A DNA stretch of 64,000 nucleotides from Vicinamibacterales bacterium (lineage in GTDB: Bacteria > Acidobacteriota > Vicinamibacteria > Vicinamibacterales > UBA8438), in the NCBI GenBank assembly GCA_965229825.1, contig CBDDJQ010000013.1, forward strand, positions 1,293,883 to 1,357,882, written 5' to 3'. The number at the start of each line of letters is the position of its first letter. Within the stretch, counting starts at the first letter, position 1. The translations under genes and the position numbers were made by a program. Shown here in pieces: positions 23,863-63,624 of the stretch. Below the pieces are notes generated by a model. The model searched no databases, had not been told where the DNA came from, and saw only the letters and a program-made list of their open reading frames with translations.

Positions 23863-23877
23863 CCGGGGGAGAGGGTC

Positions 23878-37876: not shown

Positions 37877-38099
37877 GGTCAGCCCGCCGGTTCCGAGACC
37901 GCCATCACGGTTCTTCGGCGGCGAAGGGCCGTACGCGGCTGGCGCCCGCAGCGTCATGCCGGCGATTATAGCGCCGTCGATCGCGTGTCTTGGACGGGAG
38001 ATACGCATCCGGCCGACCTTCCGGCCCCGGTATCGGTGTCCCCGGTTTGTGTCGGTCGTGACCCGACGCATCCGGGATCGTGGTAAGCTCCGCGGTCGC

Positions 38100-39110: not shown

Positions 39111-39304
39111 CCCGCGCGCCGACGGGCGCCCGGCGACGCTGTGCGACCGCGTCGGTGCGGCACTAGGGCAGGGGTGCTGTTCGGAGCGGCGGTGAAGGAG
39201 CGGGAGCGGACGATCGCTCGGGCGACGCCGCGGTGGGTTGACGGAACCCGGTCCTTGGTCACCGAACCGGACCAGCATAGAATAGGAGACCTGCGAGGGC
39301 GACG

Positions 39305-41827: not shown

Positions 41828-41913
41828 CGGGAGCAGGGGCTGGAAGGCAACGTCTCCTCTCGGAGAACGGACTCAATTTGGTCGGCCGAGCACGACCCGA
41901 CAAGAGGACTGAC

Positions 41914-43275: not shown

Positions 43276-43432
43276 AAGCGGTTGCGTCAGGGCGCCGGGC
43301 GTCTGCAGGACACCGCTGACGCGGACGAAGCTGGACCGGAGGATGCCGATGTTGGGAGCCCGTGGCAAGAGCCCCGCTGCAGTCGAGCGGCGATGCATTC
43401 CGTCTACCCACGCGGCGTTTCGCCGCGGGCCC

Positions 43433-43495
43433 CTGGGAGCCTGCGCCGTAGAACGGCGCGGACTCCTGCAGGATTGGTTGGGTGGACAGCGGCGC
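43433..43495 (+). repeat. REP-like element (imperfect hairpin plus GGTTGGTTG tail), related to 58863-58925
   Basis: GGAGCCTGCGCCGTAGAACGGCGCGGACTCCTGCAGGATTGGTTGGGTGGACAGCGG aligns by eye at roughly 80 percent with GGAGTCCGCGCCGTGGAACGGCGCGGACTCCTGGCGGGTTGGTTGAGCGACAAGCGG. Confidence 0.5.
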
Positions 43496-43507
43496 CTTGC
43501 GGCGGCG

Positions 43508-45040
43508 ATGTCCGGGCCAGGCCGGGGTAGAAGCGCAGGAAGGACATGGGGCGCGCGCGTCTGCCTGTCCGGGTTGCTGCTGGCCCTGGCGGGAGCCCCC
43601 GCCGCGGCCGCGGCCCTGCCCGAGGCGGCGCTCGCCGACGCCGCGAGGCACGCCGACTGGGCCGCGGTCCGGACGCTGCTCGAAGAGGGCGCCGACGTCG
43701 ACGCCCGCGAGGGGGACGACTCGACCGCTCTTCATTGGGCGAGCTACTGGGACAACCGCGAGGTCGCGGCCCTGCTGATTCGCGCGGGAGCCGAGATCGA
43801 TGCCGCGAACGACCTCGGGGTCACTCCCCTCTGGGCCGCGTGCGAGAACGGCAGCTCGGCCATGGTGGAGACCCTGCTCGGGGCCGGAGCCGACGCGAAC
43901 ATGCCGTTGCCGTTCGGGGAGACGCCTCTGATGACGGCGGCCCGTACCGGCAGTGCCGACGTGGTCGGCCGGCTGCTGGCCGCGGGCGCGGACGTCGACG
44001 CGGCCACCGGGGAAGGGGCCTACGGCGCGCAGACGGCCCTCATGTGGGCGGTCGCGCAGAAACATCCCTCGGTCGTCGAGGTGCTCCTGGCGCATGGCGC
44101 CGACGTGCACGCGCGCTCGAGCACGTTCACGGAGACCGTCAAGACCATCTCGACGTACGCGAACTACGGTCTGCAGTGCGTGCCCAGGGACGAGTGCTAC
44201 ATCACCGAGGTCCGGAGCGGGGGGTTCACCCCGTTGTTGTTCGCGGCCCGGGTGGGCGACCTCGCCTCGGCGCGGCTGCTCGTGGCGGCGGGCGCCGACG
44301 TGAACGAGGTCACGCCGGACGGGGCCAGCGCCCTGGCCGTCGCGGCCCTCAGTGGAAGCGGGGCCGTCGGCGCGTTGCTGCTGGACAGCGGTGCGGACCC
44401 GAACGCGGCCGGGGGCGGCTATGCGCCGCTGCATGCGGCGATCCTGCACCGGGACCCCCTGCTGGCCGAGGCGCTGCTGTCGGCGGGGGCGGATCCGAAC
44501 GCCCGGGTGTCGGCCTCGACGCGATACACGCGCGACAGCGCGGACTTCTTCTTCCCGCCCTGGTTTGTCAGGGCGCCGGCGTTCTGGCTGGCCGCGCGCC
44601 ACCGGGAAGCCGGCCTCATGCGCCTCCTCGCCCGCTACGGCGCCGATCCCCTGGCCACGCACAGCCCGGAGTACTGGACCACCGACCGGCGCACGTCCGC
44701 GGGCCGGATGTGGGCCGAGGAAGGCGAGACGACCGCCCTGATGGCGGCGGTCGGACTGGGAGGACGTGACCCGCTCTGGTCGGTGGACCACCGCGCGAGG
44801 GTCGCGGAAGCGACGGAGCTCGGGCGGGGCCCCGACCCCACCGAGGTCCAGGCCGTGACGCTGGAAGCGGTCAGGGTGGCGGTCGAGTTGGGCGTCGACG
44901 TCAACGCCGCGAATGCGCGCGGGCGGACGGCGGTCGACGCGGCCGAGGGCGACGTGTTCGATGACGTGGTCGCGTTCCTGATCGAGCACGGGGCGGCGTC
45001 CCCGTTCGACACGAGAGACGACGCGCGAGGAGCACGTTGA
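43508..45040 (+). CDS. ankyrin repeat protein with signal peptide (cassette 3, gene 3)
   Basis: 510 aa from MSGPGRGRSAGRTWGARVCLSGLLLALAGAPAAAAA. ANK repeats (TALHWASYWDNREVAALLIRAGAEIDA, TPLWAACENGSSAMVETLLGAGADAN, TPLMTAARTGSADVVGRLLAAGADVD and others). Start uncertain; the track ORF begins at 43214. Confidence 0.75.
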   Translation: MSGPGRGRSAGRTWGARVCLSGLLLALAGAPAAAAALPEAALADAARHADWAAVRTLLEEGADVDAREGDDSTALHWASYWDNREVAALLIRAGAEIDAANDLGVTPLWAACENGSSAMVETLLGAGADANMPLPFGETPLMTAARTGSADVVGRLLAAGADVDAATGEGAYGAQTALMWAVAQKHPSVVEVLLAHGADVHARSSTFTETVKTISTYANYGLQCVPRDECYITEVRSGGFTPLLFAARVGDLASARLLVAAGADVNEVTPDGASALAVAALSGSGAVGALLLDSGADPNAAGGGYAPLHAAILHRDPLLAEALLSAGADPNARVSASTRYTRDSADFFFPPWFVRAPAFWLAARHREAGLMRLLARYGADPLATHSPEYWTTDRRTSAGRMWAEEGETTALMAAVGLGGRDPLWSVDHRARVAEATELGRGPDPTEVQAVTLEAVRVAVELGVDVNAANARGRTAVDAAEGDVFDDVVAFLIEHGAASPFDTRDDARGAR

Positions 45041-45341
45041 GCGCGAGGCGCCAGGTGCCACCGCTCCCTGCTGATCACCCCTGACCTGCCTATCGGGCAC
45101 TGGGACATCCGTATTTCCGAACGCCTCGGGCGCCGTAGCCCTGATCGCCCGCCTGACGCACGAGTCCAGTCGAGCCCGCCGGCGTTATCTCCGCTCGCCG
45201 ACGAGGGCCGCCGGCCGTCTCTCATGAATCCGGAATAGCTATCATAGACTCGGTGCGCTACCCATCAGCGAATCGGATGCAGTAAGGTCGCAAGGCCGGG
45301 ACCGTGACCATTCCGGTGCGGGACCATACCAGGAGGGAATC

Positions 45342-46301
45342 ATGACAGCGAGCGGCAGGTCGCGCGGGCTGGCGGCGGGTCTGGTGGCGGCGGTGCTGGC
45401 CGGCGCGGGACTCGGCGCCCAGGAGCCGCCCCCGGAGGTGACGAAGGCGCAGTTCGACACCTGGATGACCGAGCTCTCGAACTGGGGCCGCTGGGGCGAC
45501 GACGACCAACTCGGCGCCCTCAACCTCATCACGCCGGCCAAGCGGGTCGAGGCGGCGAAGCTCGTGCAGACGGGGCAGGTCGTGTCGATGGCCCGGCCCA
45601 TCGAGCTCCAGGTCCTCGACGACCCGGATGCGGCCAGCGCGAACCGGAAGCCGGTGCTCGTGGGCGCCGTCCGCAACGTGTTCGACATCGACACCGGGAA
45701 CGGCTACTTCTGGGAGCGCTACGAGGTCGAGTACCACGGGCTCCTGGTGTCACACCTCGATGCGCTGTGCCACGTGGCCTACGAAGGCAAGGTCTACAAC
45801 GGCCGCACCTTCGAGGAGATCGCCACCGCCGAGGACGGCTGCACGGCCATGGGCGTCATCAATGCGAAGGACGGGCTGGTGACGCGCGGTGTCCTCATCG
45901 ACATGCCGGGGAAGGCGGTCACGCGCGCGGACATCGAGGCGTGGGAAGCCGAGACCGGCATCACGATTTCGTCCGGCGACGCTCTGTTCCTGCGCACGGG
46001 CCGCGACGTCGGCCGGCAGGGCGGCTACCACCCGTCCCTCATCCCGTTCCTCAAGGAGCGCGACATCGCGTTGCTCGGCTCCGACGTGCCCCAGGAAGGC
46101 GGCACGGTGGAGGGCGTGGCCATCCCGATCCACGTCTTCACTCTCGTCGCGCTTGGCGTTCACCTGTTCGACAACCTCGGCCTCGAGGACCTGGCCCGGA
46201 CCGCGAGCGAGGTCGGCCGCTGGGAGTTCCTCTTTACGGCGTCGCCCCACGTGGTGCCGAACGGCGCCGGGTCGGCCATGAACCCGATCGCCGTGTTCTA
46301 G
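45342..46301 (+). CDS. cyclase-family protein (kynurenine formamidase-like fold), secreted
   Basis: 319 aa with RBS GGAGGGA. Signal MTASGRSRGLAAGLVAAVLAGAGLGAQ. SNWGRWGDDDQLGALNLIT and YHGLLVSHLDALCHV (His/Asp metal-site pattern of the putative cyclase family). Confidence 0.85.
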   Translation: MTASGRSRGLAAGLVAAVLAGAGLGAQEPPPEVTKAQFDTWMTELSNWGRWGDDDQLGALNLITPAKRVEAAKLVQTGQVVSMARPIELQVLDDPDAASANRKPVLVGAVRNVFDIDTGNGYFWERYEVEYHGLLVSHLDALCHVAYEGKVYNGRTFEEIATAEDGCTAMGVINAKDGLVTRGVLIDMPGKAVTRADIEAWEAETGITISSGDALFLRTGRDVGRQGGYHPSLIPFLKERDIALLGSDVPQEGGTVEGVAIPIHVFTLVALGVHLFDNLGLEDLARTASEVGRWEFLFTASPHVVPNGAGSAMNPIAVF

Positions 46302-46308
46302 CTCTAGT

Positions 46309-46332
46309 AGCCCGTGGCTTTCACCACGGGCT
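46309..46332 (+). terminator. perfect 9-bp stem hairpin directly after the cyclase gene (REP-family motif, possible terminator)
   Basis: AGCCCGTGG-CTTTCA-CCACGGGCT begins 8 nt after the stop at 46299-46301. No U-tract follows. The same CCCGTGG motif recurs in the 72-bp elements. Confidence 0.4.
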
Positions 46333-46505
46333 GCTGGCACGGCATCCACGAGATCTTTGGCGTGTTCTGGCAGGTCGAGCCGACGATCGCCTGGGAGCTG
46401 GTCAACGACCCCGATCCCGCTAAGTCCCAACGGGTGGTCGACACCGTCCTCGGAATGACGAAGCTCGACGCCGCCACCCTGAAACGGGCCTACGCGGGGG
46501 AGTAG
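46314..46505 (+). pseudogene. 3-prime fragment of a VOC/PhnB-like (3-demethylubiquinone-9 3-methyltransferase-domain) gene
   Basis: Only the C-terminal tail is recognisable (EIFGVFWQVEPTIAWELVNDPDPAKSQRVVDTVLGMTKLDAATLKRAYAGE). The first residues of the ORF are encoded by the hairpin element. No N-terminal domain is present. Confidence 0.55.
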
Positions 46506-46547
46506 GGCTGCCTCCGGGGTCGTGAGACCGCCGCCGAGGCGCGCTCC

Positions 46548-46915
46548 CTACGGCGCACCTGGACTCTCCGGGAGCGCGAACACCCACATGACCCCGCTGC
46601 CGTCGGGAATCCTCGTGTCTGTCAACCGCGCATAGAACCGGGTGTTGGCGATGCGGCCGCCCGCCCCCACCGCGAGGTACTGCCGGCCGTCGACCTCGAA
46701 CGTGACCGAGCGCCGGAGACGTCGCCGTTCAGCCGCGTCTCCCAGAGCGGGGCGCCGGTATCGGCGTCGAGCGCGAAGAAACGTCGGTCAGAGGTGCCTC
46801 CGAACACGATGTCGCCGGCCGACGACAGCGCCGCCGCGCTCATCGCGGCGCCGCCGGGAAAGCGATGCTCCCACGCCGGCCCGTGATCGGGTCGAACGCC
46901 ACGAACTCGCCGACA
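46548..46915 (-). pseudogene. 3-prime remnant of a PQQ-dependent dehydrogenase gene with at least two frame breaks
   Basis: Three minus-strand frames together read GEFVAFDPITG / AAMSAAALSSAGDIVFGGTSDRRFFALDADTGAPLWETRLNGDVSG / VTFEVDGRQYLAVGAGGRIANTRFYARL...MWVFALPESPGAP-stop. This parallels the C-terminus of the intact enzyme at 56993-58858. Confidence 0.65.
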
Positions 46916-48238
46916 TCAACCCATCGCCAACCGCCGCGAGCAGACGCCGCACGACGCTGGACGACCACGGTTGTCGGCCGGTTGGCCTGTGGTATGGTTC
47001 CCCGGTCGCGTCCTAGACTGCCAACGAGCGACGAATGGGAGGCAACCATGCTGCGCAAACGCTTACGTCGTGCGGTCCTAATCGCATCGATCGCGGCCGC
47101 AGGTGCCGGCCTGGTGCCGGCATGGCTGTCCGGTTCGGCGCCGGCCGGCGGGACGGCGGCGGCGCAGGGTCGCAGCCTGCCGGTCTTTGAGGTCGACGGG
47201 GCGTGGCCCACGGTGCCGGCCGAGATGAAGCTCGGAGCTCCGTCCAGCATAGCCATCGATGCGGAGGACAACGTATGGGTCCTGCACCGTCCGCTGACGC
47301 TCCCCCCCGAGCAGGCCGCGATGGCGGCGCCGCCGGTTGTCGTCTTCGACGCGGCAGGCAACTTCATCAAGGCCTGGGGCGGCGCGGGAACCGGCTACGA
47401 GTGGCCCCAACGTGAACACGGTCTCCACATCGATCACGAGGGCTTCGTCTGGCTGGGCGGCAACAACTGTCCGACCAACGGCGTGCCCAGGGTCGAGCCG
47501 GTCAACGACGACCAGCTGCTGAAGTTCACGCAGGACGGCACGTTCGTCATGCAGATCGGCCGCAGCAACCGGAACCAGGGCAACGCCGACACGATGAACC
47601 TCCACCGGCCGGCGGATCAGCAGGTCCATCCGCCGACCAACGAGCTGTTCGTGGCCGACGGCTACGGCAACCACCGTGTCGCCGTGTTCGACGCCCGGAC
47701 CGGCCGCTTCAAGCGGATGTGGGGAGCCTTCGGCAACACGCCGGTGGACGACGACCAGTGTCAGTTCACGAGCCCGACCCGCTTCTCGGATCCGGGTCCT
47801 CCGAATCTCAGCATCGTCCACGCCATCCGGGTGTCGAACGATGGCATGGTGTATGCGGCCGACCGCGAGTACCGCCGCGTCCAGGCGTTCACGCTGGATG
47901 GCACGTTCGTGAGACAGGTGGTCACGACCGACGCACCCTTCGCGCGCAATCTCGCCCTGTCCGCGGATCCGGAGCAGCAGTTCCTCTACGTCGGCGGCGA
48001 TGACGGCATCGTCGTCGTCGACCGCGCGACGCTCGAGGTCCTCGGAACGGTCCGCCCCCAGGGAATCCTGGGCGCCGGCCACCATATAGCGACCGATTCC
48101 CAGGGCAATCTCTACCTGGCGGCGACGGGCGCGGGCATGCAGAAGCTGACGTTCAGGGGGATGTCCGGCGCGCAGTGACAAAGGGATGCAGCTCACGAGC
48201 AGACTTGCGATCGTTCCGAGCCGCGCTCTGAGCTTGGC
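46916..48238 (+). repeat. 1.3-kb direct repeat, copy 1
   Basis: Aligns line by line with 54238-55569 (offset 7320 through the CDS). About 20 substitutions and 2 small indels counted by eye. Confidence 0.9.
47048..48178 (+). CDS. NHL-repeat / peptidyl-alpha-hydroxyglycine lyase-like six-bladed beta-propeller protein, secreted (copy 1)
   Basis: 376 aa. RBS GGGAGG. Signal MLRKRLRRAVLIASIAAAGAGLVPAWLSGSAPAGG. Blade motifs GLHIDHEGFVWLGGNN, LFVADGYGNHRVAVFDARTGRF, VYAADREYRRVQAFTLDGTF, LYVGGDDGIVVVD, GNLYLAATGAGMQKLTF. Confidence 0.8.
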   Translation: MLRKRLRRAVLIASIAAAGAGLVPAWLSGSAPAGGTAAAQGRSLPVFEVDGAWPTVPAEMKLGAPSSIAIDAEDNVWVLHRPLTLPPEQAAMAAPPVVVFDAAGNFIKAWGGAGTGYEWPQREHGLHIDHEGFVWLGGNNCPTNGVPRVEPVNDDQLLKFTQDGTFVMQIGRSNRNQGNADTMNLHRPADQQVHPPTNELFVADGYGNHRVAVFDARTGRFKRMWGAFGNTPVDDDQCQFTSPTRFSDPGPPNLSIVHAIRVSNDGMVYAADREYRRVQAFTLDGTFVRQVVTTDAPFARNLALSADPEQQFLYVGGDDGIVVVDRATLEVLGTVRPQGILGAGHHIATDSQGNLYLAATGAGMQKLTFRGMSGAQ

Positions 48239-48333
48239 TCGGTGTAGACGCGGGGCTACTTCGATCACCTTCGCCTACTGTTGCACCCGAACTGCAAGGC
48301 CCCGCACCGTAGAACCCTCCACCCGGTAACCAA

Positions 48334-51010
48334 TTACCCGTGGCTATCGCGTGCGCCTGAGCCTTGTTCACTGTTCGAGGCTCGCAAGGGCGGTGGCGTG
48401 AACCGCGTCGGGGTGTCCGTTCGAGACGAGCCATCGGTGGGCATCGTTGGCGGTGATCGTTCTCCAGCTCGGCGTGGAACCCTGCCATTGGGACCAGGAG
48501 TGCAGGATCCAGACCCGCCTTCCGCGTCGGGCGTTCGCCGGATGGCCAGGCACGTCATGTCGTCGACGGCGTCGGCGTCGCCGGAGAACTCGTCTATCGC
48601 GAACCAGATTCTATCCACTATCGCTGGTGGATCCGGGGGCGTGGTGGTCGCGACGATCTTCCGCAGTCGTTGTTCTCCGAAGTCGTCGCCGGTCTTGTTC
48701 GCTGCATCGGTCACGCCGTCGGTGTACATCACGATCGCGTCGCCCGGCTCCAGTTCCCCGGCTGCGGTGTTGTACGCGTGCTCAGGCTCGAGCGCCAGGG
48801 GTAAGTTGCCGGTGGGCGGCAGCTTTTCGAGCGTCGGCCCACGGCGGGCGATAGGGGGCTCGTGTCCGGCACAGACGTAATCGAAGTGGCCGGTGACGGT
48901 GTTGAAGCTCGCCAGGAATCCGGTGACGAACATGGAGAGCCTCGTTGCTCGCGCAGAGCGTCGCGTTTGCTGTTCGCGCGACGTCGGCGACGTTCGAGTG
49001 TTCCCGGGCGGCGGCGTTGAGCGCGGCCTGGGCGGCGACCATGAACAGGGCGGCTGCCACGCCTTTGCCGGACACGTCGAAGACGCCTGCCATGAGGGTC
49101 TGCGGGCCGGTTCGTTGCAGGATCACGAAGTCGCCGCCGAGGTCCTGTGCCGGGGACATTCGGGCGTGGAGTTCGAGTTGGTCGAGGTTCTGCGTCCCGG
49201 CGGGCACGAGGTTCTTCTGCACGATCCGGCCTAGGCGTACGTCGTGTTCGATCTGGTCGTTCGTCGCCTTGAGACGGTCGACGGTTCGTTTCAGCGAATG
49301 CGTGCGGTCGGCCACGAGCCTGGCGAGCTCGTCGTGGCGCGCGAGCACTTCCTCGGTCATGTGGTCGAAGCTCCGGGCGAGAGTCCCCAGCTCATCGCTG
49401 CGTTCCGCCAGGCGGGCCCTCATCGGTGGGGGGCGGTCGCCGCTTGCGAGCATGCGCGCCCGGTCGGCGATGGCGATTACCGGACTGGTGAGCCAGCGGC
49501 GGGTGGACCAGGTTGTCGCGAGCGTCATGATCGCTATCAATCCGACTGCGGTAGCGATCCCGGTCCTGATTTCCGAGCGCATCCGCCGGACCATGTCGTT
49601 CACTTCGGTCTGGACGACGATGGTGGCGTCCCGGCCTATGGGGGCGGCGCTCAGGACGGCGGCGGGCGTGCCGCGCCAAAGGTCGACGTCGGCGGTGGCC
49701 ACGGCGCTGTCGGCGGTGGCGCTTCGGTTCGCCGTCCGGGTGATTGCGGGGCTCCATCGTGACCAGGCGTCCGTGGCGTCGCCGCTGGTCTCTCCCGGTC
49801 GCGGCGCCGCGGCGGCGAGGCGGGGTTCGGTTCGCCCGGCGTCGGTTGTCGTTATCCAGAGGCCGGTGATGCCGGGAACCCGGCCGAATTGGTCCGCGGC
49901 TGTCTGCCAGGCGCTTTCGACAAGGCTTCCTTCTCCCGCTTGCGTGGCGAGTTGGACGCTGGCTGCGAGTCGTCCGCGTGTCCGGAGCGCGGCCGCGGCC
50001 GCGATCCAGCGGCGTTGGTCGTCGAAGTGGCCGGCGAGGTCGGTGGTCGCGGTCTGGTTGGCGGCAATCAGTGCCGTGACCGCGGCCTGTGCGGTTCGTT
50101 CGTCGGCGGTCGCGCCGGTGTCGGTACGGGCGGCCGTGGTGGTTGCGGGTGCCGTGTACACGATTGTTCCGGCTCCGCCCAGTGCTTGTATCCGGACGAT
50201 GCTCGTGTTCCTGACGATCGCATCGAGCCGGGCCTGTATCTCTCGTGCCGTCCAGTCGGCGTCTTCCGCGAGTTCGATCGCGTGGGCGATGATCAGGGCG
50301 ATCGCCGCCGCCTGGTCGCTTGCAAGCCGCCTCGCGGCCAGGCTGCCGGGACGGCCGTAGGCGGTTTCTGCGTCTTGCTGGTCGAGGTTCTGCCGCACCT
50401 GCAGGGCGAGACGTCGGTGGAGGGTCTGTGACGCTGCGGTTTTGCTCAGCCCCTCTGGGGTTGTTCTCGCCGGCATCGTCGCGGTACGACCCTCAGGGGC
50501 GGTGCGGGCGAGTTCCCGGTAGGGTTCGGGAAGCTCGGCGATGTCGAGGGCGTTCCTTTCCGTCGAATACGAGGGTCCCTCGTCGGCGGCGACGTCGATT
50601 CGGCGTATCGGGGATCGGGCGGTCAGTTGGCGTAAAGCGTCCTCGATGTACGGGGCGGTGTGCCGGGCCGCCTCGGCAGCTTCTACGAGCATGGCGGCGG
50701 CTGCCGCGGTGGCCCGGAGCTGGTCTTCCATTACCACGTCCAGGGTGCGGGTGGTGTTAGCGGCCGAGTTGCTCGCGAGGGCTTCCAGCTCGCCGGCGAG
50801 GGTTGCGGCGGTTCGCCTTCCGTTCTGTTCGGCTTGCTGCCGCAAGCTGTTTCCGGCGATCCAGAGGGCGCCGGTGGTCGTTGTCCCGATGGCGATGGTC
50901 AGGGTGATGTACAACGCGATCCCGGTGCGTGTCCCGAGGCTCCATCCCGACGGGCCATAGGGCTGGTCTTCCGCTATGCTGTGCGGGTCGTCGCTGAGTA
51001 TCGTGGTCAT
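48334..51010 (-). pseudogene. membrane sensor with HAMP and a SpoIIE/PP2C-type phosphatase domain (RsbU-like), frameshifted
   Basis: The 742-aa ORF (48782-51010) holds a TM segment, a large extracytoplasmic region, a second TM, HAMP (SDELGTLARSFDHMTEEV) and the start of the PP2C domain (DLGGDFV...VFDVSGKGVAAALFM). The remainder (MFVTGFLASFNTVTGHFDYVCAGHEPP...IVMYTDGVTDA...DDMTCLAIRR) is in another frame (48334-48933). The break is near 48930-48945. Confidence 0.75.
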
Positions 51011-51063
51011 CGGGTGTTCCTTGAGCGGCGATACGCTGGTTGGTCGACAGATGGGGTGTGCTG

Positions 51064-54000
51064 ATGACGCGTCGGGTGGGAGCGCTGGTCGGCTTCGTGG
51101 CTGTCGTCGGTCTCTCCGTCGCGCGCGCGGAGCAGCCGGCTGCCGGCGGGATAGAGGGGCTGGTGGTGGATCCCTTCGATGTCGGGGTCGGGGCTGCCGA
51201 GGTCGCCATCGTGTCGATCTCCGGGTATCGGGCCACGTCGAGTACCGATTCCAACGGCGCTGTGGATTTTACCAACGTGGTGGCGGGGGTTTACACCCTC
51301 GAGGTCGTCCGTGACGGTTTCGAGCCGATCGAGCGTATGGTCACGGTTCCGGAGGCGGGACGGGTGCCGGTGCGGGTGGTGCTGACGCCCTTGGTTGCCG
51401 CGGGCTTGTCTGTAGTCGCGGTCGATCCGCAGGGCTTGGCGTTGCCCGGGGTCGTCGTGGAGGCGCTCGGGCCTGGGGGCGAAGCGTTGACGGAGGTCAC
51501 TGGACCGGACGGCGCGGTCGTTTTCGCGGGGGTTCGGCCGGGGCCGTGGCGGCTTCGCGGCACGCTGGCCGGCTTCGATGCTGCGGAGGAGGTTGCGGTC
51601 GCGGCGTTCGGCGTGTCGGTTCCGGTGCGGTTGTCGTTGAGCTTGGACTATGCGGTGGCCGAGAGCGTCGTTGTGGTTGGTTCTCGGCGGACGGTGGGGC
51701 GGCGGACGCCGGCAGAGTCGCCGGTCGCGGTCGAGATTGTCAGTGGTGCTCAGCCCCGGGCGGACATGGTCGAGGTCATGCGGGCGTTGAGTCCGTCGTT
51801 CAATGTCAATACCCAGCCGATTTCCGATGCGGCGACGGTGGTGCGGCCCGTCAATTTCAGGAATCTCGCGCCCGATCACCTGCTGGTGATGGTCAACGGG
51901 AAGCGTCGGCACCGGGGGGCGGTTATCGCGTGGCTCGGCAACGGGTTATCGGATGGCTCACAGGGTCCGGACCTTTCGGCGATTCCCACCATTGGCGTGC
52001 GCCAGGCGGAGTTGCTGCGGGATGGTGCGGCCGCCCAGTACGGTTCGGATGCGATTGCCGGGGTTGTCAATTTCGAGTTGAAAGACGCGCGGTCGGGGGG
52101 GTCGGTGGAGGTGCGGAGCGGTGTTTACGGGGCGCGCAACGCGGGCGATGTCCGGACGTGTGGTGCTCTCGCGGCCGCGCAACCGGGTTTGTCGTGCGCG
52201 GGCATCGGGGGACGGGCGTCGGGTTACACGGTGGCAGGTAACGTGGGGCTCCCGTTGGGGACTGGTTTCGCCAACTTGAGCATGGAAGCGGGCGGTCAGG
52301 GAGCGACCAATCGTGCGGTTCAGCGGGCCGATGCCCTTGCTCTTGTCGGGGCAGGGGGCGCGGCGCCACGGGATACGGCACAGGTGTGGGGTCAGCCGGA
52401 GATTGGCGGCGATATCAAGCTCTTCGGCAACTTCGGGGGCACGCTCGCGTCGGGCCACCAACCGTATCTGCACGCGAATTTCGCGCGCCGGCGTGTGGTC
52501 GGCGGCTTCTACTATCGGCATCCCCACACCCGCTCGGGGGTCTTCAGGGGACCGGAGGTGGATGGGGTTCAGTCCCTTCTGGTCGGTGATCGTCTACAGG
52601 CTGCGACCGGGGTGCCTGGCGCCGGCGGTTGTCCGTCCGTGCCCGTGGTCGAGCATCGGCCGGATGCCGCGGCGCTGGCGGCGGTCGAGGCGCACCCCGA
52701 TTGTTTCACTCTCTATAGTCGGTTCCCGGCCGGTTTCACTCCACAGTTCGGCGGCGTTCTCCGGGATCATCCGGTGGTCGCCGGGTTGAAGTCTGTCGCA
52801 GATGGCGGCGCAACCTGGGATCTCAGTCTCGGCGTGGGTCGGAGCGACATCGATCAGTTCATCTTCGACACCGTCAACGCGTCGTTGGGTTCCGAGACGC
52901 CTACCGAGTTCAGCCCGGGCGGTTACGAGCAGTCGGAGCTGAACGTCAATGCGGACGTCGCGGTTCCGTTGTCGGATCGGCTCCATCTCGCGGCTGGCGC
53001 GGAGTACCGGGTCGAGCGCTTCTCTATCGTCCCGGGTGACGAGGCGTCGTGGATGATTGGACCGTACGCGGAACAGGGGTTCTCGTCGGGGTCGAACGGC
53101 TTCAACGGTTATCGGCCCGACACGACGTCCGGTTCGTGGGCGCGTGCGAATGCGGCGCTCTACGCCGACTTGGAACTCGATGGCGTGGACTCGGAATGGT
53201 CGGTCGGCGGTGCGTTACGGCTGGAGCGGTTCCAGGGTTTCGGTAACACGTTGAACGGCAAGGCGGTGTTCCGACGCGAGCTGGGGCCGGTCCTCGCCGT
53301 GCGGGGCTCTGTTTCGACCGGGTTCCGGGCGCCGACGCCCGGGCAGCAGCATACGTTCAACGTCACGACCGCGTTCATTGACGGGGAGTTGGTGAACAAC
53401 GGCGTGGTCCCGGCGACGTCCGGGGTGGCTCTTGCCCGGGGCGGTCGGGCACTGGCTCCCGAGCGGTCCAGGAATCTGTCGGCGGGTGTGGTCGTCGACC
53501 GCGGGGCCTTTCAGCTCAGCGCGGATTGGTTCCGTATCGACATAGACGATCGGGTGGCCCTCACCCAGGAGATCCGTTTGCGGCCGGACGAGATCGACAC
53601 GTTGTTGGCCGAGGGGATCGCGGAGGCGCGGAACTTCCCGGTTTTCCGGTTCTTCGTCAATGACTTTTCGACTGTGACGCAGGGGGCTGACGTGCTGGGG
53701 TCGTGGGCGTTGGGTGCCGGCACCACATTGACCGGGTCGTGGAACTACACGGTGACGACGGTGGCGGATTTGCGATCGAACGTCATCGACGCGTTCAGGG
53801 TTCAGACGCTCGAGCGGGGGTTGCCGGTCTCTCGGTGGCAACTCTCGGCGGAACATCGGCGTGAGGGGTGGAGTCTCACGGGACGGCTGCACTGGTACGG
53901 CGCGTACTGGGACAGCGAGGACGGGCGGAACGCGGCGGACCTCGGGGCGCATGCCGTGCCTTGGGAGTACCCGTTGTATCCGGGGCGGCTGCTGGCGGAC

Positions 54001-54735
54001 GTGGAGCTGGGGGTCCGGGGTCCGGGTGGGGCGTGGCTCGCTTTCGGGGTCGAGAATGTCGCAGGAGTGTACCCGGAGGAAAACCGCTTCGCCCCTCTGA
54101 CGGTGGGCAATCGCTACGGCCAGTTCTCGCCGTTCGGGTTCGGCGGGGCGTACTATTACGCTCGCGCGACGTACGTAGTGGGGCCTTGGCGGGCGCTAGA
54201 GTCGACGAGGATGGTTGCGGATGTGCGGGGGCGTGTCCAACCCATCGCCAACCGCCGCGAGCGACGCCGCACGACGCTGGACGACCGCGGCTGTCGGCCG
54301 GTTGGCCTGTGGTATGGTTCCCCGGTCGCGTCCTCGACTGCCAACGAGCGACGAATGGGAGGCAACCATGCTGCGCAAACGCTTACGTCGTGCGGTCCTC
54401 ATCGCATCGATCGTGGCCGCAGGTGCCGGCCTGGTGCCGGCATGGCTGTCCGGTTCGGCGCCGTCCGGCGGGACGGCGGCGGCGCAGGGTCGCAGCCTGC
54501 CGGTCTTCGAGGTGGACGGGACGTGGCCCACGGTGCCGGCCGAGATGAAGCTCGGAGCTCCGTCCAGCATTGCCATCGATGCGCAGGACAACGTATGGGT
54601 CCTGCACCGTCCGCTGACGCTTCCCCCCGAGCAGGCCGCGATGGCGGCGCCGCCGGTTGTCGTCTTCGACGCGGCAGGCAACTTCATCAAGGCCTGGGGC
54701 GGCGCGGGAACCGGCTACGAGTGGCCCCAACGTGA
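51064..54735 (+). CDS. TonB-dependent receptor with two CarboxypepD_reg-like domains (no stop of its own; recognisable barrel ends near 54190)
   Basis: MTRRVGALVGFVAVVGLSVARAEQ signal. GLVVDPFDVGVGAAEVAI...GVYTLEV and a second similar domain. Plug NFRNLAPDHLLVMVNGKRRH and DGAAAQYGSDAIAGVVNFELKD. Barrel to ...GGAYYYARATYVVGPW. The frame then stays open across the repeat boundary at 54238 to a stop at 54735, overlapping the next gene. Confidence 0.75.
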   Translation: MTRRVGALVGFVAVVGLSVARAEQPAAGGIEGLVVDPFDVGVGAAEVAIVSISGYRATSSTDSNGAVDFTNVVAGVYTLEVVRDGFEPIERMVTVPEAGRVPVRVVLTPLVAAGLSVVAVDPQGLALPGVVVEALGPGGEALTEVTGPDGAVVFAGVRPGPWRLRGTLAGFDAAEEVAVAAFGVSVPVRLSLSLDYAVAESVVVVGSRRTVGRRTPAESPVAVEIVSGAQPRADMVEVMRALSPSFNVNTQPISDAATVVRPVNFRNLAPDHLLVMVNGKRRHRGAVIAWLGNGLSDGSQGPDLSAIPTIGVRQAELLRDGAAAQYGSDAIAGVVNFELKDARSGGSVEVRSGVYGARNAGDVRTCGALAAAQPGLSCAGIGGRASGYTVAGNVGLPLGTGFANLSMEAGGQGATNRAVQRADALALVGAGGAAPRDTAQVWGQPEIGGDIKLFGNFGGTLASGHQPYLHANFARRRVVGGFYYRHPHTRSGVFRGPEVDGVQSLLVGDRLQAATGVPGAGGCPSVPVVEHRPDAAALAAVEAHPDCFTLYSRFPAGFTPQFGGVLRDHPVVAGLKSVADGGATWDLSLGVGRSDIDQFIFDTVNASLGSETPTEFSPGGYEQSELNVNADVAVPLSDRLHLAAGAEYRVERFSIVPGDEASWMIGPYAEQGFSSGSNGFNGYRPDTTSGSWARANAALYADLELDGVDSEWSVGGALRLERFQGFGNTLNGKAVFRRELGPVLAVRGSVSTGFRAPTPGQQHTFNVTTAFIDGELVNNGVVPATSGVALARGGRALAPERSRNLSAGVVVDRGAFQLSADWFRIDIDDRVALTQEIRLRPDEIDTLLAEGIAEARNFPVFRFFVNDFSTVTQGADVLGSWALGAGTTLTGSWNYTVTTVADLRSNVIDAFRVQTLERGLPVSRWQLSAEHRREGWSLTGRLHWYGAYWDSEDGRNAADLGAHAVPWEYPLYPGRLLADVELGVRGPGGAWLAFGVENVAGVYPEENRFAPLTVGNRYGQFSPFGFGGAYYYARATYVVGPWRALESTRMVADVRGRVQPIANRRERRRTTLDDRGCRPVGLWYGSPVASSTANERRMGGNHAAQTLTSCGPHRIDRGRRCRPGAGMAVRFGAVRRDGGGAGSQPAGLRGGRDVAHGAGRDEARSSVQHCHRCAGQRMGPAPSADASPRAGRDGGAAGCRLRRGRQLHQGLGRRGNRLRVAPT

Positions 54736-55569
54736 ACACGGTCTCCACATCGATCACGAGGGCTTCGTCTGGCTGGGCGGCAACAACTGTCCGACCAACG
54801 GCGTGCCCAGGGTCGAGCCGGTCAACGACGACCAGCTGCTGAAGTTCACGCAGGACGGCACGTTCGTCATGCAGATCGGCCGCAGCAACCGGAACCAGGG
54901 CAACGCCGACACGATGAACCTCCACCGGCCCGCGGATCAGCAGGTCCATCCGCCGACCAACGAGCTGTTCGTGGCCGACGGCTACGGCAACCACCGTGTC
55001 GCCGTGTTCGACGCCCAGACCGGCCGCTTCAAGCGGATGTGGGGAGCCTTCGGCAACACGCCGGTGGACGACGACCAGTGTCAGTTCACGAGCCCGACCA
55101 GCTTCTCCGATCCGGGTCCTCCGAATCTCAGCATCGTCCACGCCATCCGGGTGTCGAACGATGGCATGGTGTATGCGGCCGACCGCGAGTACCGCCGCGT
55201 CCAGGCGTTCACGCTGGATGGCACGTTCGTGAGACAGGTGGTCACGACCGACGCACCCTTCGCGCGCAATCTCGCCCTGTCCGCGGATCCGGAGCAGCAG
55301 TTCCTCTACGTCGGCGGCGATGACGGCATCGTCGTCGTCGACCGCGCGACGCTCGAGGTCCTCGGAACGGTCCGTCCCCAGGGAATCCTGGGCGCCGGCC
55401 ACCATATAGCGACCGATTCCCAGGGCAATCTCTACCTGGCGGCGACGGGCGCGGGCATGCAGAAGCTGACGTTCAGGGGGATGTCCGGCGCGCAGTGATA
55501 ACGCAGTGCTAAAGGGATGCAGCTCACGACCAGACTTGCGATCGTTCCGAGCCGCGCTCTGAGCTTGGC
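54238..55569 (+). repeat. 1.3-kb direct repeat, copy 2
   Basis: See copy 1. Carries an extra ~10 nt just after the CDS stop and lacks 1 nt near 54262 relative to copy 1. Confidence 0.9.
54368..55498 (+). CDS. NHL-repeat / peptidyl-alpha-hydroxyglycine lyase-like six-bladed beta-propeller protein, secreted (copy 2)
   Basis: 376 aa. Differs from copy 1 at 14 nucleotides (8 synonymous, 6 replacement: A-V, A-S, A-T, E-Q, R-Q, R-S) by hand comparison. Confidence 0.8.
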   Translation: MLRKRLRRAVLIASIVAAGAGLVPAWLSGSAPSGGTAAAQGRSLPVFEVDGTWPTVPAEMKLGAPSSIAIDAQDNVWVLHRPLTLPPEQAAMAAPPVVVFDAAGNFIKAWGGAGTGYEWPQREHGLHIDHEGFVWLGGNNCPTNGVPRVEPVNDDQLLKFTQDGTFVMQIGRSNRNQGNADTMNLHRPADQQVHPPTNELFVADGYGNHRVAVFDAQTGRFKRMWGAFGNTPVDDDQCQFTSPTSFSDPGPPNLSIVHAIRVSNDGMVYAADREYRRVQAFTLDGTFVRQVVTTDAPFARNLALSADPEQQFLYVGGDDGIVVVDRATLEVLGTVRPQGILGAGHHIATDSQGNLYLAATGAGMQKLTFRGMSGAQ

Positions 55570-55590
55570 GGTCGCGCGCTCGCGTTCCCC

Positions 55591-56348
55591 GTGGCCACCC
55601 GAAGCGCGTCGGTCTTGAACGCCAGCCCGAAGCCGCCGATCGCCGAGGCCGCCAACTCGCCCCGCACTACGGGCGCCACGGTCACGGTGATGCCGGACAC
55701 GGCGTACGAGCTGCAGGTGCGCGCGGTGAGCGCCGAAGGCGTCGGCGCCTATTCCGCGAGCCTTGACATTGATGTCGAACCGCTGTCGGCACCCCCGTCG
55801 GCACTCCGCAACCTGGTGGCGACCCCCGGCGAGCAGCAGGTGACGCTGAGCTGGTCGGCCCCGGAGAACGATGGTGGCGCCGACATTGATCGCTACGAGG
55901 TTCAGGTGGACACGGGCCAGTGGCGCGACGCAGGTACGGATCTGCAAGAAGTGGTGAGCGGCTTGACCAACGGCAGACCTACCAGTTTGGGGTCCGGGCG
56001 GTGAATGGGTCGGGCGAGGGGCCGGCGGCGACGGTTCAGGCAACCCCTGCCGTGGCGCCGTCGGCTCCCCGGAACCTGGCGGCGGAGCCGGGAGATGCAC
56101 AGGTGACGCTTGCATGGTCCGCGCCGCGTAGCGATGGCTGGTCGGCCATCCAGCGCTACGAGTATCGGATAGACGGTAGCGGCACGTGGACGGACGTGGG
56201 CTTCGTGTCTACGGTAGTAGTGGGCGACCAGGAGAACGGTCGAACCTATGCTCTCACATCGAGTATATCAAAGGCTGCGAAAACCACACTCGGCCACGAC
56301 CTCGATGTCGTCGTGCCCGGAGGCGTACTCCCGGGCGACCGCCGGTGA
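55591..56348 (+). pseudogene. internal fragment of a fibronectin type III repeat protein, frameshifted and truncated at both ends
   Basis: FN3-like units in two frames: PSALRNLVATPGEQQVTLSWSAPENDGGADIDRYEVQVDTGQWRD...GLTNG, then QTYQFGVRAVNGSGEGP...PSAPRNLAAEPGDAQVTLAWSAPRSDGWSAIQRYEYRIDGSGTW. Frame break near 55970-55980. No plausible N-terminus. FN3 similarity is lost after about 56250. Confidence 0.6.
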
Positions 56349-56405
56349 GAGCTCCTCGTCGTCAACCACGACGGCCCGGATCGGCCGGTTCGCCAGCGCG
56401 GTCAC
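56268..56405 (-). pseudogene. 5-prime fragment of a response-regulator gene (receiver-domain N-terminus only)
   Basis: VTALANRPIRAVVVDDEELSPAVAREYASGHDDIEVVAECG then FRSL-stop. This is the classic start of a receiver domain (IRxxxVDDE ... EVVxEC) but only about 45 codons long. The GTG start overlaps the upstream stop (GTGA at 56402-56405). Confidence 0.5.
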
Positions 56406-56851
56406 CGTCCGCCCCCGCGGGATTCCTCTCCCGCTCCGGCGGTTTCGACATCGCTTTCCATGAGGGTCCGGATGCCGATGGGCACCAGGATGACCGGCCA
56501 GAAATCCCGAAGGTCGACGTCGATCAGATTGAGGGCGTTGAGCAGCAGCAGCGCGCCCACGGCGGCCGGCAGCGTGCCGCTGACCGCCGACCCGCGATCC
56601 TGGGCGGCGATGAGGTTCTTGAGGCCGGCGACGAGCAGAATCAGCGGCCAGAACCGCAGGATAGTCCCGCTCTCGACGAGATCGAGGTTGTCGAGCAGGA
56701 ACACGAGGCCAACGGCCAGGAGCACCAGACCCGGCAGGGGCGGTTCGCGCGCTTCGCCGGGCGGCGGTCGACACGCTGCTCGCCGGCGCCGCCAAGGGTC
56801 AGGACGACCACGCCAAACCGCGTCGCGAACCTGCGCGAGAGATCCATGCAC
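56402..56851 (-). CDS. small membrane protein with LiaF-like/DUF5668-type transmembrane region
   Basis: GLVLLAVGLVFLLDNLDLVESGTILRFWPLILLVAGLKNLI...LPAAVGALLLLNALNLIDVDLRDFWPVILVPIGI. Start uncertain (GTG 56851 chosen; the track ORF starts at 56944; a further frame break cannot be excluded). Confidence 0.4.
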   Translation of the reverse strand: MHGSLAQVRDAVWRGRPDPWRRRRAACRPPPGEAREPPLPGLVLLAVGLVFLLDNLDLVESGTILRFWPLILLVAGLKNLIAAQDRGSAVSGTLPAAVGALLLLNALNLIDVDLRDFWPVILVPIGIRTLMESDVETAGAGEESRGGGR

Positions 56852-56992
56852 GACGGCTGCGGCGTTGCAGGGCCGCAATACCGGAAAACCCGTATGCGTC
56901 CCAGGGTTGATCCCGCCGTTCCAGCGGCATAACATCGTCGACAATCAACGGCGCAGAATCCGGGGCACGTGCCCAGAACCAAGGAGTGCAGC

Positions 56993-58858
56993 ATGAACCT
57001 GTCAACCAACTGGCGCGGCTGGATGTGGATTCCGCTCCTGTCACTGCTGTGCGTTCTCGGCGTACCGCAGGCCGCGGTCGCCCAGGAGGGTTCGGCGGGC
57101 GACCCGTCGTCGCAATGGGTCATGCCGAATGCCAACTATGCCGGCTGGAACTACAGCCCGCTCGATCAGATCAACGTCGACAACGCCGGGCAGCTCACGA
57201 TGGCGTGGACGATGCAGCTCGGCGTCCACGATTCGTACGAAGCCTCGCCGCTCGTGATCGGTGACACGATGTACATCGTCACCCCGGAGCCGAACTACGT
57301 CTACGCGCTCGACCTCGCCCGGGACGGCTTCATTAAGTGGGAGTTCCGGCCCGAGATCGCGGACTCGGAGCTGACCCGGAGGAGCGCCTGCTGCGGCGCG
57401 CAGACCCGCGGCCTGGGCTATGACGACGGCCGGATCTTCTTCGCCACCCTCGACGGACAGGTGTTCGCGCTCGACGCGGAGACCGGAGAGCAGATCTGGC
57501 AGGCCGAGAATGCGACCGTCGCGACGGGGGAAACGGTCCCCGGCATGCCGCTGGTGGTCGGCGACAAGGTCATCGTCGGCGTGGCCGGCGGCGAGCGCGG
57601 CGTCCGCGGTCATGTCACCGCCTACAACCTCGACGACGGCCGGTTCCGGTGGCGGTACTACAGCATGGGGCCGAACAACGAGGTGGGCATCGGGTCTCGC
57701 TTCGCCCCCTTCTATCCCGACGATCGCATTCCCAACCCGGCGCTCGACACCTGGTCCGGCGACTCGTGGCGGCGCGGCGGCGGCGCCGTCTGGGGCTGGT
57801 TCACGTACGACGCCGAGCTCAATCTCTTCTACTACGGCACGAGCAACTGCGCCCCCTGGAATCCGGACTACCGCCGGGAGTGGGGCGAAGTCGAGCTCGA
57901 CGAGGACGGGGGCCTGACCGGGTTCCGGAACAACTACTGCGCGTCGATCCTGGCCCGCGACGCCGACACCGGAGACCTGATCTGGGCCTACAACATGACC
58001 CCCCAGGATCAGTGGGACCTCGACGAGCCCAACGTGAACCTCCTCGTCGACCTCGAGATCGACGGCCAGCCGCGCAAGGCGCTGGTCCGCCCGGCGCGGA
58101 ACGGCTACTTCTACGTGTTCGATCGCGCGACGGGCGAGATGATCCTCGAGCCCTGGATGTTCGTCTACAACGACATCTTCGATGGCATCAACATGGAAAC
58201 CGGCCGTCCGCGCTACGACATGACGAAGATGATGTTCACCGACGTCGAGGATCGGCAGCGGTACCTGCCGGACGCCGAGAACGTCGCCATCGGCTGGTGT
58301 CCCGGCATCGCCGCCCGGAACTGGCAGAACGACGCGTTCTCCCCGCGCACCGGACTGGTGTACACCCCGACCTCGAACAGTTGCGATCGTCTGAGAATGG
58401 TCGAAGGCGAGTACGTGCCCGGGAACGACTACACGCTCCGTGAGCGCGGCGGCAATGCTCCGGACCCGCCCAACGCGGAGGTCGTCAACGAGCTGCAGGC
58501 CAACGACCCGGTGGCGGGCGAGACCGTCTGGCGGGTGCAGTGGACCACCGCCAACAACGCGCCGGTTATGGCCACCGGCGGGGACCTGCTCTTCCAGGGC
58601 GGCCCCAACGAGGGCGTGGTGCGGGCGATCGATGCCCGGACCGGGGACATCGTCTGGACGTTCCGGACCGGCAGCAACTTCCGGAACTCGCCGATCACCT
58701 ACCTCGGGCCGGACGGGCGGCAGTACGTCGCCGTCATCGGCAGCCAGCGCCCGGGGAGCGTGCAGATCACGCCGGACGCGGAGCCGGACGCGGTCGCCCG
58801 CTTCCGGCGGGCGGGCAGCGCGCTCTACGTGTTCGCGCTCCCTGCGGCTCGCGACTGA
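56993..58858 (+). CDS. PQQ-dependent dehydrogenase, methanol/ethanol family (quinoprotein alcohol dehydrogenase)
   Basis: 621 aa from ATG preceded by AAGGAG. Signal MNLSTNWRGWMWIPLLSLLCVLGVPQAAVAQ. NYAGWNYSPLDQIN, vicinal Cys pair SACCGAQTRG, GVAGGERGVRGHVTAYNLDDG, TPQDQWDLDEPN, RNGYFYVFDRATGE, SPITYLGPDGRQYVAV. Confidence 0.9.
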   Translation: MNLSTNWRGWMWIPLLSLLCVLGVPQAAVAQEGSAGDPSSQWVMPNANYAGWNYSPLDQINVDNAGQLTMAWTMQLGVHDSYEASPLVIGDTMYIVTPEPNYVYALDLARDGFIKWEFRPEIADSELTRRSACCGAQTRGLGYDDGRIFFATLDGQVFALDAETGEQIWQAENATVATGETVPGMPLVVGDKVIVGVAGGERGVRGHVTAYNLDDGRFRWRYYSMGPNNEVGIGSRFAPFYPDDRIPNPALDTWSGDSWRRGGGAVWGWFTYDAELNLFYYGTSNCAPWNPDYRREWGEVELDEDGGLTGFRNNYCASILARDADTGDLIWAYNMTPQDQWDLDEPNVNLLVDLEIDGQPRKALVRPARNGYFYVFDRATGEMILEPWMFVYNDIFDGINMETGRPRYDMTKMMFTDVEDRQRYLPDAENVAIGWCPGIAARNWQNDAFSPRTGLVYTPTSNSCDRLRMVEGEYVPGNDYTLRERGGNAPDPPNAEVVNELQANDPVAGETVWRVQWTTANNAPVMATGGDLLFQGGPNEGVVRAIDARTGDIVWTFRTGSNFRNSPITYLGPDGRQYVAVIGSQRPGSVQITPDAEPDAVARFRRAGSALYVFALPAARD

Positions 58859-58862
58859 GGAG

Positions 58863-58899
58863 CCAGGAGTCCGCGCCGTGGAACGGCGCGGACTCCTGG
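58863..58899 (+). terminator. perfect 16-bp stem, 5-nt loop hairpin 5 nt after the dehydrogenase stop (terminator candidate and REP-family member)
   Basis: CCAGGAGTCCGCGCCG-TGGAA-CGGCGCGGACTCCTGG, followed by GGTTGGTTG. A related copy lies at 43433-43495. Confidence 0.6.
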
Positions 58900-58977
58900 C
58901 GGGTTGGTTGAGCGACAAGCGGAGCCGCAGGCGACTTCCGGCCACGCGGGGGTTTCGCCACGGTTCCCGGACAGCCG

Positions 58978-61248: not shown

Positions 61249-61261
61249 GAGAGGTGCCCAC

Positions 61262-62518: not shown

Positions 62519-62567
62519 ACTGGCTCGGCACGTCGTGAACAAGGGGAGCGGCAACGAGGGGGACACA

Positions 62568-63425: not shown

Positions 63426-63624
63426 GCTTAGGAGTCCGTGGCGAACGCTTGGGCTGAAGAACAACCCATCTATTTTCAGTCGTTTGCAAAGTCGTCTCCA
63501 GTGGCCGTGTACATTTTCGTGCACAACCGGAACGGCTGTGCCTTGCGCCGCCCGTTCTCCTGCCTGTCGTCATTGAGGTGAGCCGGTTTCGGGCTCGTGT
63601 GCGCATTCTCCAGTGGAGGTGCAC

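Follow-up and report, generated by a model that had tools for sequence, protein, structure and literature searches.

A Probable Segmental Duplication Around an NHL-Repeat Gene in a Vicinamibacterales Chromosome, Polymorphic by Homologous Recombination

Introduction

How does a bacterial chromosome come to carry two nearly identical 1.3-kb direct repeats, each with a complete gene, on either side of a 6-kb segment? The question is raised by a stretch of 64,000 nucleotides, here called the window, from a soil bacterium of the order Vicinamibacterales (Acidobacteriota; Vicinamibacteria; UBA8438 in the GTDB lineage; GenBank assembly GCA_965229825.1, contig CBDDJQ010000013.1, positions 1,293,883 to 1,357,882 of the forward strand). 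The repeated gene encodes a protein resembling NHL/PAL propellers. A sequence-only reading of the window had offered three accounts of the arrangement: Campbell-type integration of a circular DNA by a single crossover, a tandem duplication of 7.3 kb in which the second unit was cut short, and the joining of two strain variants by mis-assembly.

The account preferred here, with a probability of about 0.72, is that the block is a real, non-recent segmental duplication in the chromosome, which is now polymorphic by homologous recombination between its arms. It draws on strains that have a single copy of the repeat, on a sister lineage with the same arrangement, and on the locus from which most of the insert was copied.

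The Two Repeats and Their Gene

The two copies are as follows.

46917..48238, forward strand: R1, with 131 nt of upstream sequence, the NHL coding sequence (CDS) at 47048-48178 and 60 nt of 3' region
54208..55569, forward strand: R2, the full ancestral unit, with 160 nt of intergenic sequence between a pyrroloquinoline quinone (PQQ)-dependent dehydrogenase gene and the NHL gene, the NHL CDS at 54368-55498 and 71 nt of 3' region

According to a repeat finder and MAFFT, R1 (46917-48238, 1322 nt) and the corresponding part of R2 (54239-55569, 1331 nt) are direct repeats that align over their whole length. The alignment shows 19 substitutions, a 1-nt indel at 46942 and a second indel of 11 nt, with 98.6% identity over the aligned bases, in agreement with the earlier count of about 20 substitutions, two indels and roughly 98.5% identity. 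The first 390 nt of the repeat hold 12 of the 19 substitutions. The 11-nt indel lies right after the stop codon and is a tandem duplication, CGCAGTGxTAA, present in R2. Both copies stop at ...CTGAGCTTGGC, the sharp shared right end that had been described. The full repeat unit starts at 54208 in R2, 30 nt to the left of the aligned start. Inspection of the ends of the 1.3-kb repeat by eye revealed no terminal inverted repeats and no target duplication.

The NHL CDS, 1131 nt long, is an intact open reading frame (ORF) of 376 amino acids in both copies, as the sequence-only reading had held. Its count of 14 differences between the two, 8 synonymous and 6 replacement, was exact. The ORFs score 31.7 and 32.3 bits against the Pfam NHL family (cut-off 20). 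Among solved structures the best match, at E 1.5e-10 over residues 124-308, is to 3fvz, the peptidyl-hydroxyglycine amidating lyase (PAL) domain of peptidylglycine amidating monooxygenase, and the N-terminus is signal-peptide-like. The product is predicted to be an NHL-repeat beta-propeller of PAL-like type. A scan of R2 for consensus promoters and terminators found none; it covered promoters of the sigma-70 type only and may say little for this host.

Strains with a Single Copy

Exact look-up of the two NHL proteins led to two contigs from other assemblies, L001 (ENA ERZ25068966, 342 kb), which encodes the NHL protein of R1, and L002 (ENA ERZ28763718, 1.44 Mb), which encodes that of R2. Each has one NHL gene and is without the insert; a single-copy, insert-free locus, which the sequence-only reading had proposed to look for in related genomes, therefore exists. 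Both contigs are colinear with the window over 37049-48238 and 54238-64000, in the gene order cyclase, PQQ remnant, NHL, fn3 fragment, LiaF-like gene and PQQ dehydrogenase. Over 18 kb of flank, L002 and the window differ by no substitution and by one 1-nt indel: at 45289, some 50 nt upstream of the start of the cyclase gene, the window lacks a G that is present in L001 as well as in L002. In L001 there are, besides this indel, three substitutions and one 11-nt indel in the flanks.

The single repeats of these strains are chimeras, with a 5' part from copy 1 and a 3' part from copy 2. In L002 the repeat is identical to R1 at the four variable sites in 46942-47015 and to R2 at all 17 sites from 47080. 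In L001 it follows R1 up to 47788, except at 47188, where a T is private to the window, and R2 from 48055. The crossover intervals therefore differ, being 47015-47080 for L002 and 47788-48055 for L001. One homologous crossover between the repeats results in exactly such chimeras, either as a deletion or, in reverse, as an integration.

The reverse direction is that of a recent Campbell-type event in this strain, in which a 7.3-kb circle, possibly from a two-copy strain, would have entered an L002-like single-copy chromosome. Several features of the single-copy strains speak for it. Relative to L002, the variants of the window lie to the left of 47015/47080 in R2 and to the right of it in R1, which amounts to one reciprocal switch; the flanks are those of L002 over 18 kb; and L001 resembles the product of integration followed by excision, or allelic exchange. 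We nevertheless consider a recent integration unlikely for reasons that come from the sister lineage described below. The balance of events also counts against it: two deletions explain L001 and L002, and at least three events are needed if the circle was integrated. Moreover, loss between direct repeats is generally a commoner reaction than integration.

The same chimeras bear on the suspicion of an assembly artefact, in which the assembler would have strung together two strain versions of a locus present only once, or else a chromosome and a circle distinct from it. It is true that the alleles of R1 and R2, as judged by their proteins, also exist as single-copy alleles in L001 and L002. Against this, both switch points relative to L002 lie in one 64-nt interval, as a real crossover requires; independent mis-joins in the assembly graph would place them so in about 10-15% of cases (an estimate from the lengths of the intervals between variants). 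The edges of the insert, namely a remnant of an insertion sequence, a 169-nt piece and a short filler, are found nowhere else, so that an assembler would have had no alternative path. Together with the concordance of three assemblies described in the next section, these points leave an artefact very improbable.

A Sister Lineage with the Same Arrangement

The insert, 48239-54237, is made up of about 100 nt of the end of an insertion sequence (IS), 169 nt, 5,687 nt that duplicate a locus of two genes (the X core) and an 8-nt filler. Its parts and genes are listed below; where no strand is given, none is assigned.

48239..48343, forward strand: 3' remnant of an IS66-family (ISBst12-group) element, with the last ~19 transposase codons and the terminal inverted repeat ...CGGTAACCAATTAC
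48344..48512: 169-nt piece that separates the IS remnant from the X core and has the same sequence in L007 and L008
48513..54199: X core (5,687 nt), which opens at the stop codon of the phosphatase gene and closes ~10 codons after the point where the receptor gene would canonically end
54200..54207: 8-nt filler, AGTCGACG, at the joint between X core and R2
48334..51010, reverse strand: HAMP and PP2C/SpoIIE phosphatase gene, SiaA-like (Pfam HAMP and SpoIIE)
51064..54735, forward strand: CarboxypepD_reg/Plug/TonB-dependent receptor gene, with no stop codon at the canonical C-terminus

An unbroken form of the phosphatase, 891 amino acids long (P0140), led through its cluster listing to two further contigs, L007 (ERZ26167216, 560 kb) and L008 (ERZ25766727, 1.44 Mb). 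Both match the window from 46916 to 55677, that is both repeats and all that lies between them, in a single alignment at 98.7% identity. The joints are identical, and the IS remnant, the 169 nt (100%) and the filler are all included. Of the 5687 sites of the X core, 82 are different, and 44 of these fall in one 530-nt tract; elsewhere the divergence is ~0.7%. The left flank of L007 and L008 is 99.5% identical to that of the window over 39657-43437 and 96.5% over 43529-46916.

Because the joints are the same and the divergence of the insert (~0.7%) is comparable to that of the flanks (0.5-3.5%), the two-copy arrangement predates the split between the lineage of the window and that of L007 and L008. 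It is then also older than the split between the window and L002, which argues against a recent Campbell-type integration. From that proposal of the sequence-only reading, the connection of one-copy and two-copy states by homologous recombination holds good; its recency in this strain is contradicted by the joints that L007 and L008 share. The mis-assembly of two strains finds no support either, since three contigs from different samples (the window, L007 and L008), ~1.3% apart, have the same structure.

The Native Locus of the Insert

The X core has an original elsewhere. In the native locus the gene order is methyltransferase, phosphatase, receptor and a small CCDC90-like gene, and the X core is 98.7-99.5% identical to the five native loci compared (L003-L006 and L090), with the same two boundaries in every case. 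A protein look-up gave the same longest contig, 1,744,202 bp, for the receptor and phosphatase proteins of the native locus (P0132, P0138) and for those of the window, its read-through receptor and broken phosphatase (P0122, P0136), and the original of the X core thus appears to share a genome, on a 1.74-Mb contig, with the insert. The 53-nt gap between the start codons of the phosphatase and receptor genes had been a candidate for the joint at which a circle closed; it was ruled out, since the native locus has the same spacing.

These findings bear directly on the second proposal, that a native unit of NHL gene, phosphatase and receptor was duplicated in tandem over 7.3 kb and its second unit truncated. 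The repeat-insert-repeat topology is that of a tandem array of 1.2 units. The phosphatase and receptor pair, however, lies beside the NHL gene in no relative surveyed, ~45 related species in all, and resides in a conserved locus of its own, where the flanks are different. In addition, foreign pieces, namely the IS end, the 169 nt and the filler, separate the X core from both repeats. A tandem duplication of this kind is hardly credible.

Exchange Between the Insert and Its Original

Comparison of the insert with the native loci and with the insert of L007 gave results that change along its length. Between 48513 and 51010 the insert of the window has 3 differences from native L090, 17 from native L003 and 29 from the insert of L007. 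From 52771 to 53300 it has none from native L003 and 43-44 (8%) from every other copy, and from 53301 to 54199 there are 8-10 private differences from every other copy. Judged by these matches, the insert is a mosaic of native haplotypes, which suggests that copy and original exchange sequence by gene conversion or that strains recombine at both loci.

The 530-nt tract at 52771-53300, inside the receptor gene, occurs as two haplotypes with 43-44 differing sites, and the rest of the gene is near-invariant. It may be a hypervariable surface region that is exchanged by recombination.

Composition of the Insert

Among the main reading frames of 48239-54237, Pfam detected only the HAMP-PP2C phosphatase and the TonB-dependent receptor, and no replication, integration, transfer or phage functions. 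The lack of replication, integration and transfer genes is a further point against a Campbell-type integration and against the insert being an integrated mobile element; what was found is an IS remnant and a copy of a chromosomal locus.

The assignment of 48239-48343 to the IS66 family rests on its relatives. The interval 48249-48337 is 95.5% identical to a segment of L014 and 81% identical to one of L035. In L035 the element is complete: 1582 nt long (13472-15053), it encodes a transposase of 499 amino acids with DDE_Tnp_IS66 (E 2.7e-40) and zf-IS66 domains, has 14-nt terminal inverted repeats (GTAATTGGTTACCG) that start with GTAA, and is flanked by an 8-bp target duplication, ACGCGATC. Frame 2 of the window reads GLLRSPSPTVAPELQGPAP and the L035 transposase ends in GLLRSPSPTVAPDLQGPAP, each followed by a stop; the last 19 residues are matched. 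The terminus GTAATTGGTTACCG is common to the window, L014 and L035. Members of the ISBst12 group have a single transposase ORF, terminal repeats that start with GTAA or GTGA, and an 8-bp target duplication (PMC12898284 and references therein). The features found here fit that published description, and the piece is accordingly assigned, as a remnant, to the ISBst12 group of the IS66 family. Only ~100 of 1582 nt are present in the window, with no complete element and no transposase gene.

Two other interpretations of this region were discarded. The conserved ~90 nt were considered as a structured RNA; their predicted fold is no better than those of shuffled sequences (z -0.4 and +1.0), and they are the IS end. 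A composite transposon was rejected on the grounds that the block has a single IS end, which lies between the repeats, that the right joint is a filler, and that no target duplication surrounds the block. In L014 (2151-3335) the IS66-family copy adjoins a DDE_Tnp_1 transposase ORF and shows a gap of ~300 nt relative to the copy in L035.

The 169-nt piece has no match in the fetched loci or in the rest of the window, and a 28-mer from it was unmatched in JGI metagenome contigs. The filler AGTCGACG is present neither in the native locus nor to the left of R1 in L007 and L008.

Of the two genes of the X core, the one for the phosphatase is broken in the window, where it has a private extra C at 48940. 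Its frame also reads on for 59 codons beyond the native stop, through the 169-nt piece and into the IS remnant. Its match to the NCBIfam SiaA-like model, 107 bits, is far below the cut-off. The ORF of the putative receptor, in which the plug and barrel domains are present, crosses the joint and runs 500 nt into R2, out of frame with the NHL gene. Homologous receptors end 3-5 residues after the motif ...YARLSY.W, and the ORFs of the window and of the native locus continue past it: the native ORF (1080 amino acids) by 44 codons (L003 13100-13243), the window copy by 195. The gene call for L008 gives a product of 1477 amino acids with receptor and NHL domains. Protein search found no match to the receptor above 65-72% identity; its near-identical relatives came from a protein cluster listing, where they carry the cluster number of the NHL proteins. 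The description of the DNA to the left of R2 as the end of a receptor gene, now assigned to the CarboxypepD_reg TonB-dependent type, was correct.

Ancestral State and the Novel Joints

The survey that has been referred to took in 78 loci from species genomes, ~45 of them from Vicinamibacterales with an NHL orthologue (80-91% identity). The nearest species genomes with the gene are metagenome-assembled genomes labelled Vicinamibacterales, at no more than 91% protein identity. No close second NHL copy was found within 10 kb in the survey loci, and none of these loci has the receptor or phosphatase near the NHL gene. In ~18 of the genomes the left neighbour is a divergently oriented PQQ dehydrogenase gene (90-96% protein identity). 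One locus from another species, L056, keeps the 3' region of the unit and continues ~9 nt past the repeat end as R2 does into the right flank; it does not follow the path of R1 into the IS remnant. The ancestral state is thus a PQQ dehydrogenase gene on the reverse strand, a single NHL gene on the forward strand and the right flank. From the survey and L056 together it follows that the right joint of R2 and the left context of R1 are ancestral, and that the novel joints are those at 48238/48239 and 54207/54208.

The feature to the left of R1 and the ancestral flank to the right of R2 are these.

46551..46914, reverse strand: PQQ-dependent dehydrogenase remnant, the last 123 codons with two frameshifts (tblastn with the 578-amino acid L007 protein)
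55570..55677, no strand assigned: ancestral right flank of the NHL unit, common to L001, L002, L007 and L008

The sequence-only reading had recognized a PQQ dehydrogenase remnant here, and rightly so. The remnant matches residues 456-578 of the intact protein, spread over three frames, and its DNA is 94.7% identical to L009-L011. In relatives the gene is intact and divergently oriented to the NHL gene; it is intact (578 amino acids) in L007 and L008 as well, which retain 1417 nt of the PQQ region that are missing from the window and from L001 and L002. R2 has, ahead of its NHL gene, a 59-nt block (54208-54266) that is conserved across many species; the first 30 nt of it (54208-54237) are also found to the left of copy 1 in L007 and L008. 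For this reason the edge at 46916/46917, which is as sharp as had been reported, marks not the end of the duplication but the end of a later deletion of 1.4 kb, which took away most of the PQQ dehydrogenase gene and left R1 without the first 30 nt of the ancestral unit.

Divergence of the Repeats

R1 of the window and copy 1 of L007 have 16 differing sites in 46917-47302 and none in 47303-48238. The 5' part of R1 is accordingly the end of the divergent tract that covers 43529-46916, and its position inside such a tract accounts for the clustering of substitutions and means that the 1.5% divergence between R1 and R2 is not an age. Only three of the differences between R1 and R2 are tied to position and common to both lineages (the 11-nt duplication, 48179 and 48199); the others are lineage-specific. 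The ~1.5% divergence is a recombination mosaic, not a clock.

Proposed History

The history that we favor begins in an ancestor of the species-level group, in which a second 1.36-kb NHL unit would have been placed in direct orientation, with a 6.0-kb patchwork between the copies: the 3' end of the IS66/ISBst12 element, the 169 nt, the 5.7-kb locus copy and the 8-nt filler. This probably happened by illegitimate joining, probably associated with the IS, and not by site-specific integration, since the joints are without long homology and one of them has a filler. A crossover between the NHL copies would later have removed one hybrid copy together with the insert (7.3 kb) in the single-copy strains. 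The insert may exchange sequence with its original locus by gene conversion. A 3.8-kb divergent tract, along with the 1.4-kb PQQ deletion, would have taken the place of the left flank and of R1 up to its 390th nucleotide; 13 of the 19 substitutions are attributed to that tract. Deletion is preferred over re-integration because the two-copy state is found in the outgroup lineage, with a divergence of the insert (~0.7%) like that of the flanks (0.5%), and because of the smaller number of events given above.

Several observations weigh against this history. The single switch relative to L002 fits equally well the Campbell-type integration of an excised 7.3-kb circle, and the flanks of the window are those of L002. 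The single-copy contigs come from low-coverage assemblies, one of them labelled 9x, in which the assembler could have collapsed the repeat. The placement of the native locus in the same genome depends on a protein look-up with a matching longest contig. Conversion within the genome and recombination between strains fit the mosaic alike. Neither the 169 nt nor the filler could be traced to a source, and one end of the IS is all that is present.

A variant of this history makes the 7.3 kb a non-autonomous cassette, a circle excised and re-inserted by host recombination that moves among strains and exchanges sequence with the original locus. We think this rather improbable. If it were true, the population would have at its disposal a second copy of an outer-membrane receptor, one that can be switched and whose variable tract is 8% divergent.

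Comparison with Known Systems

Deletion and duplication polymorphism by recombination between direct repeats is familiar from enterobacteria, where rrn operons and IS copies serve as the repeats. The present case is similar in its kilobase-long direct repeats, the dispensable segment between them, the one hybrid repeat in the derivatives, the varied crossovers and the reversibility in principle. It differs in that the repeats are single-gene units and that natural strains, known from metagenome assemblies, provide the evidence in place of selected laboratory mutants.

With Campbell-type or 'pop-in/pop-out' exchange it has in common the order repeat-insert-repeat, the reciprocal variants around one crossover and, in L001, a form like that left by allelic exchange. 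In contrast to such systems, the insert has no vector- or element-like functions, the arrangement is shared with a diverged lineage, and the circle is hypothetical; no circular form with joined ends turned up among the fetched loci. Like IS-associated mosaics and ISBst12 elements, the insert begins with the 3' end of an IS; unlike composite transposons, it has ~100 nt of one IS end, no second IS and no transposase, and transposition of the block is hypothetical.

The duplicated tuf genes of Salmonella are a known case of concerted evolution of dispersed paralogues by gene conversion. Segments of the insert are likewise closer to particular haplotypes of the original locus than to the corresponding insert in the sister lineage. 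Unlike the tuf genes, the present copies are also consistent with recombination between strains, and one of the two genes of the insert is broken in the window.

Other Features of the Window and Its Flanks

To the right of 55677, L007 and L008 carry different DNA. Past the 108 shared nucleotides, the flank is replaced by small ORFs (L007 1-2705, L008 1-1319). Behind these small ORFs L007 has three tyrosine recombinase genes, overlapping and in tandem, that resemble a 'recombinase in trio', and ~2 kb of the replaced flank is inverted between L007 and L008. Directly right of R2, at 55591-56004, an ORF of 137 amino acids with a partial fibronectin type III domain, also called in L001 and L002, may be another gene fragment in a rearranged region.

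The G+C content across the window is 65-74%, and its genes were chosen by third-position G+C. ARAGORN and Rfam found no tRNA or known RNA in the window, a permissive scan of 48180-48560 included. The main reading frames of the window contain no integrase, replication or transfer gene, and the sole hint of a transposase is a weak match at 16854-18371. This ORF, with a UPF0236 match (E 6.6e-5) that falls below the cut-off, adjoins a gene for a putative restriction endonuclease of the Uma2 family (16854-19278). UPF0236 is presumably a transposase-related family, and, the IS remnant aside, nothing but this ORF hints at mobile DNA in the window.

Three paralogous gene sets in the same order lie at 4760-10227 (reverse strand), 19933-25674 (forward) and 39281-45040 (forward). 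Each has a PSD/PSCyt multi-domain protein (DUF1585/1587/1588/1592/1595), a middle gene and an ankyrin-repeat protein. The middle gene of the set at 39281-45040 encodes an HXXSHH protein, and the other two middle genes have ~67-78% DNA identity to it.

Implications

The block is chiefly of use as a worked example, in which public long-read metagenome assemblies sufficed to settle the nature of a repeat-insert-repeat arrangement with no recourse to reads. From these assemblies came the empty site, a pair of independent hybrid alleles by which crossover points are marked, an older lineage whose joints are the same, and the locus that was the source of the insert. There is also a caution in this locus: the divergence between repeat copies, 1.5%, cannot be read as an age, since recombination tracts supply most of the differences. 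What is seen is ordinary genome plasticity in unusual detail, and no new mechanism or function is implied. For the uncultured Vicinamibacterales it shows active homologous recombination among dispersed repeats, and IS66-family elements in decay.

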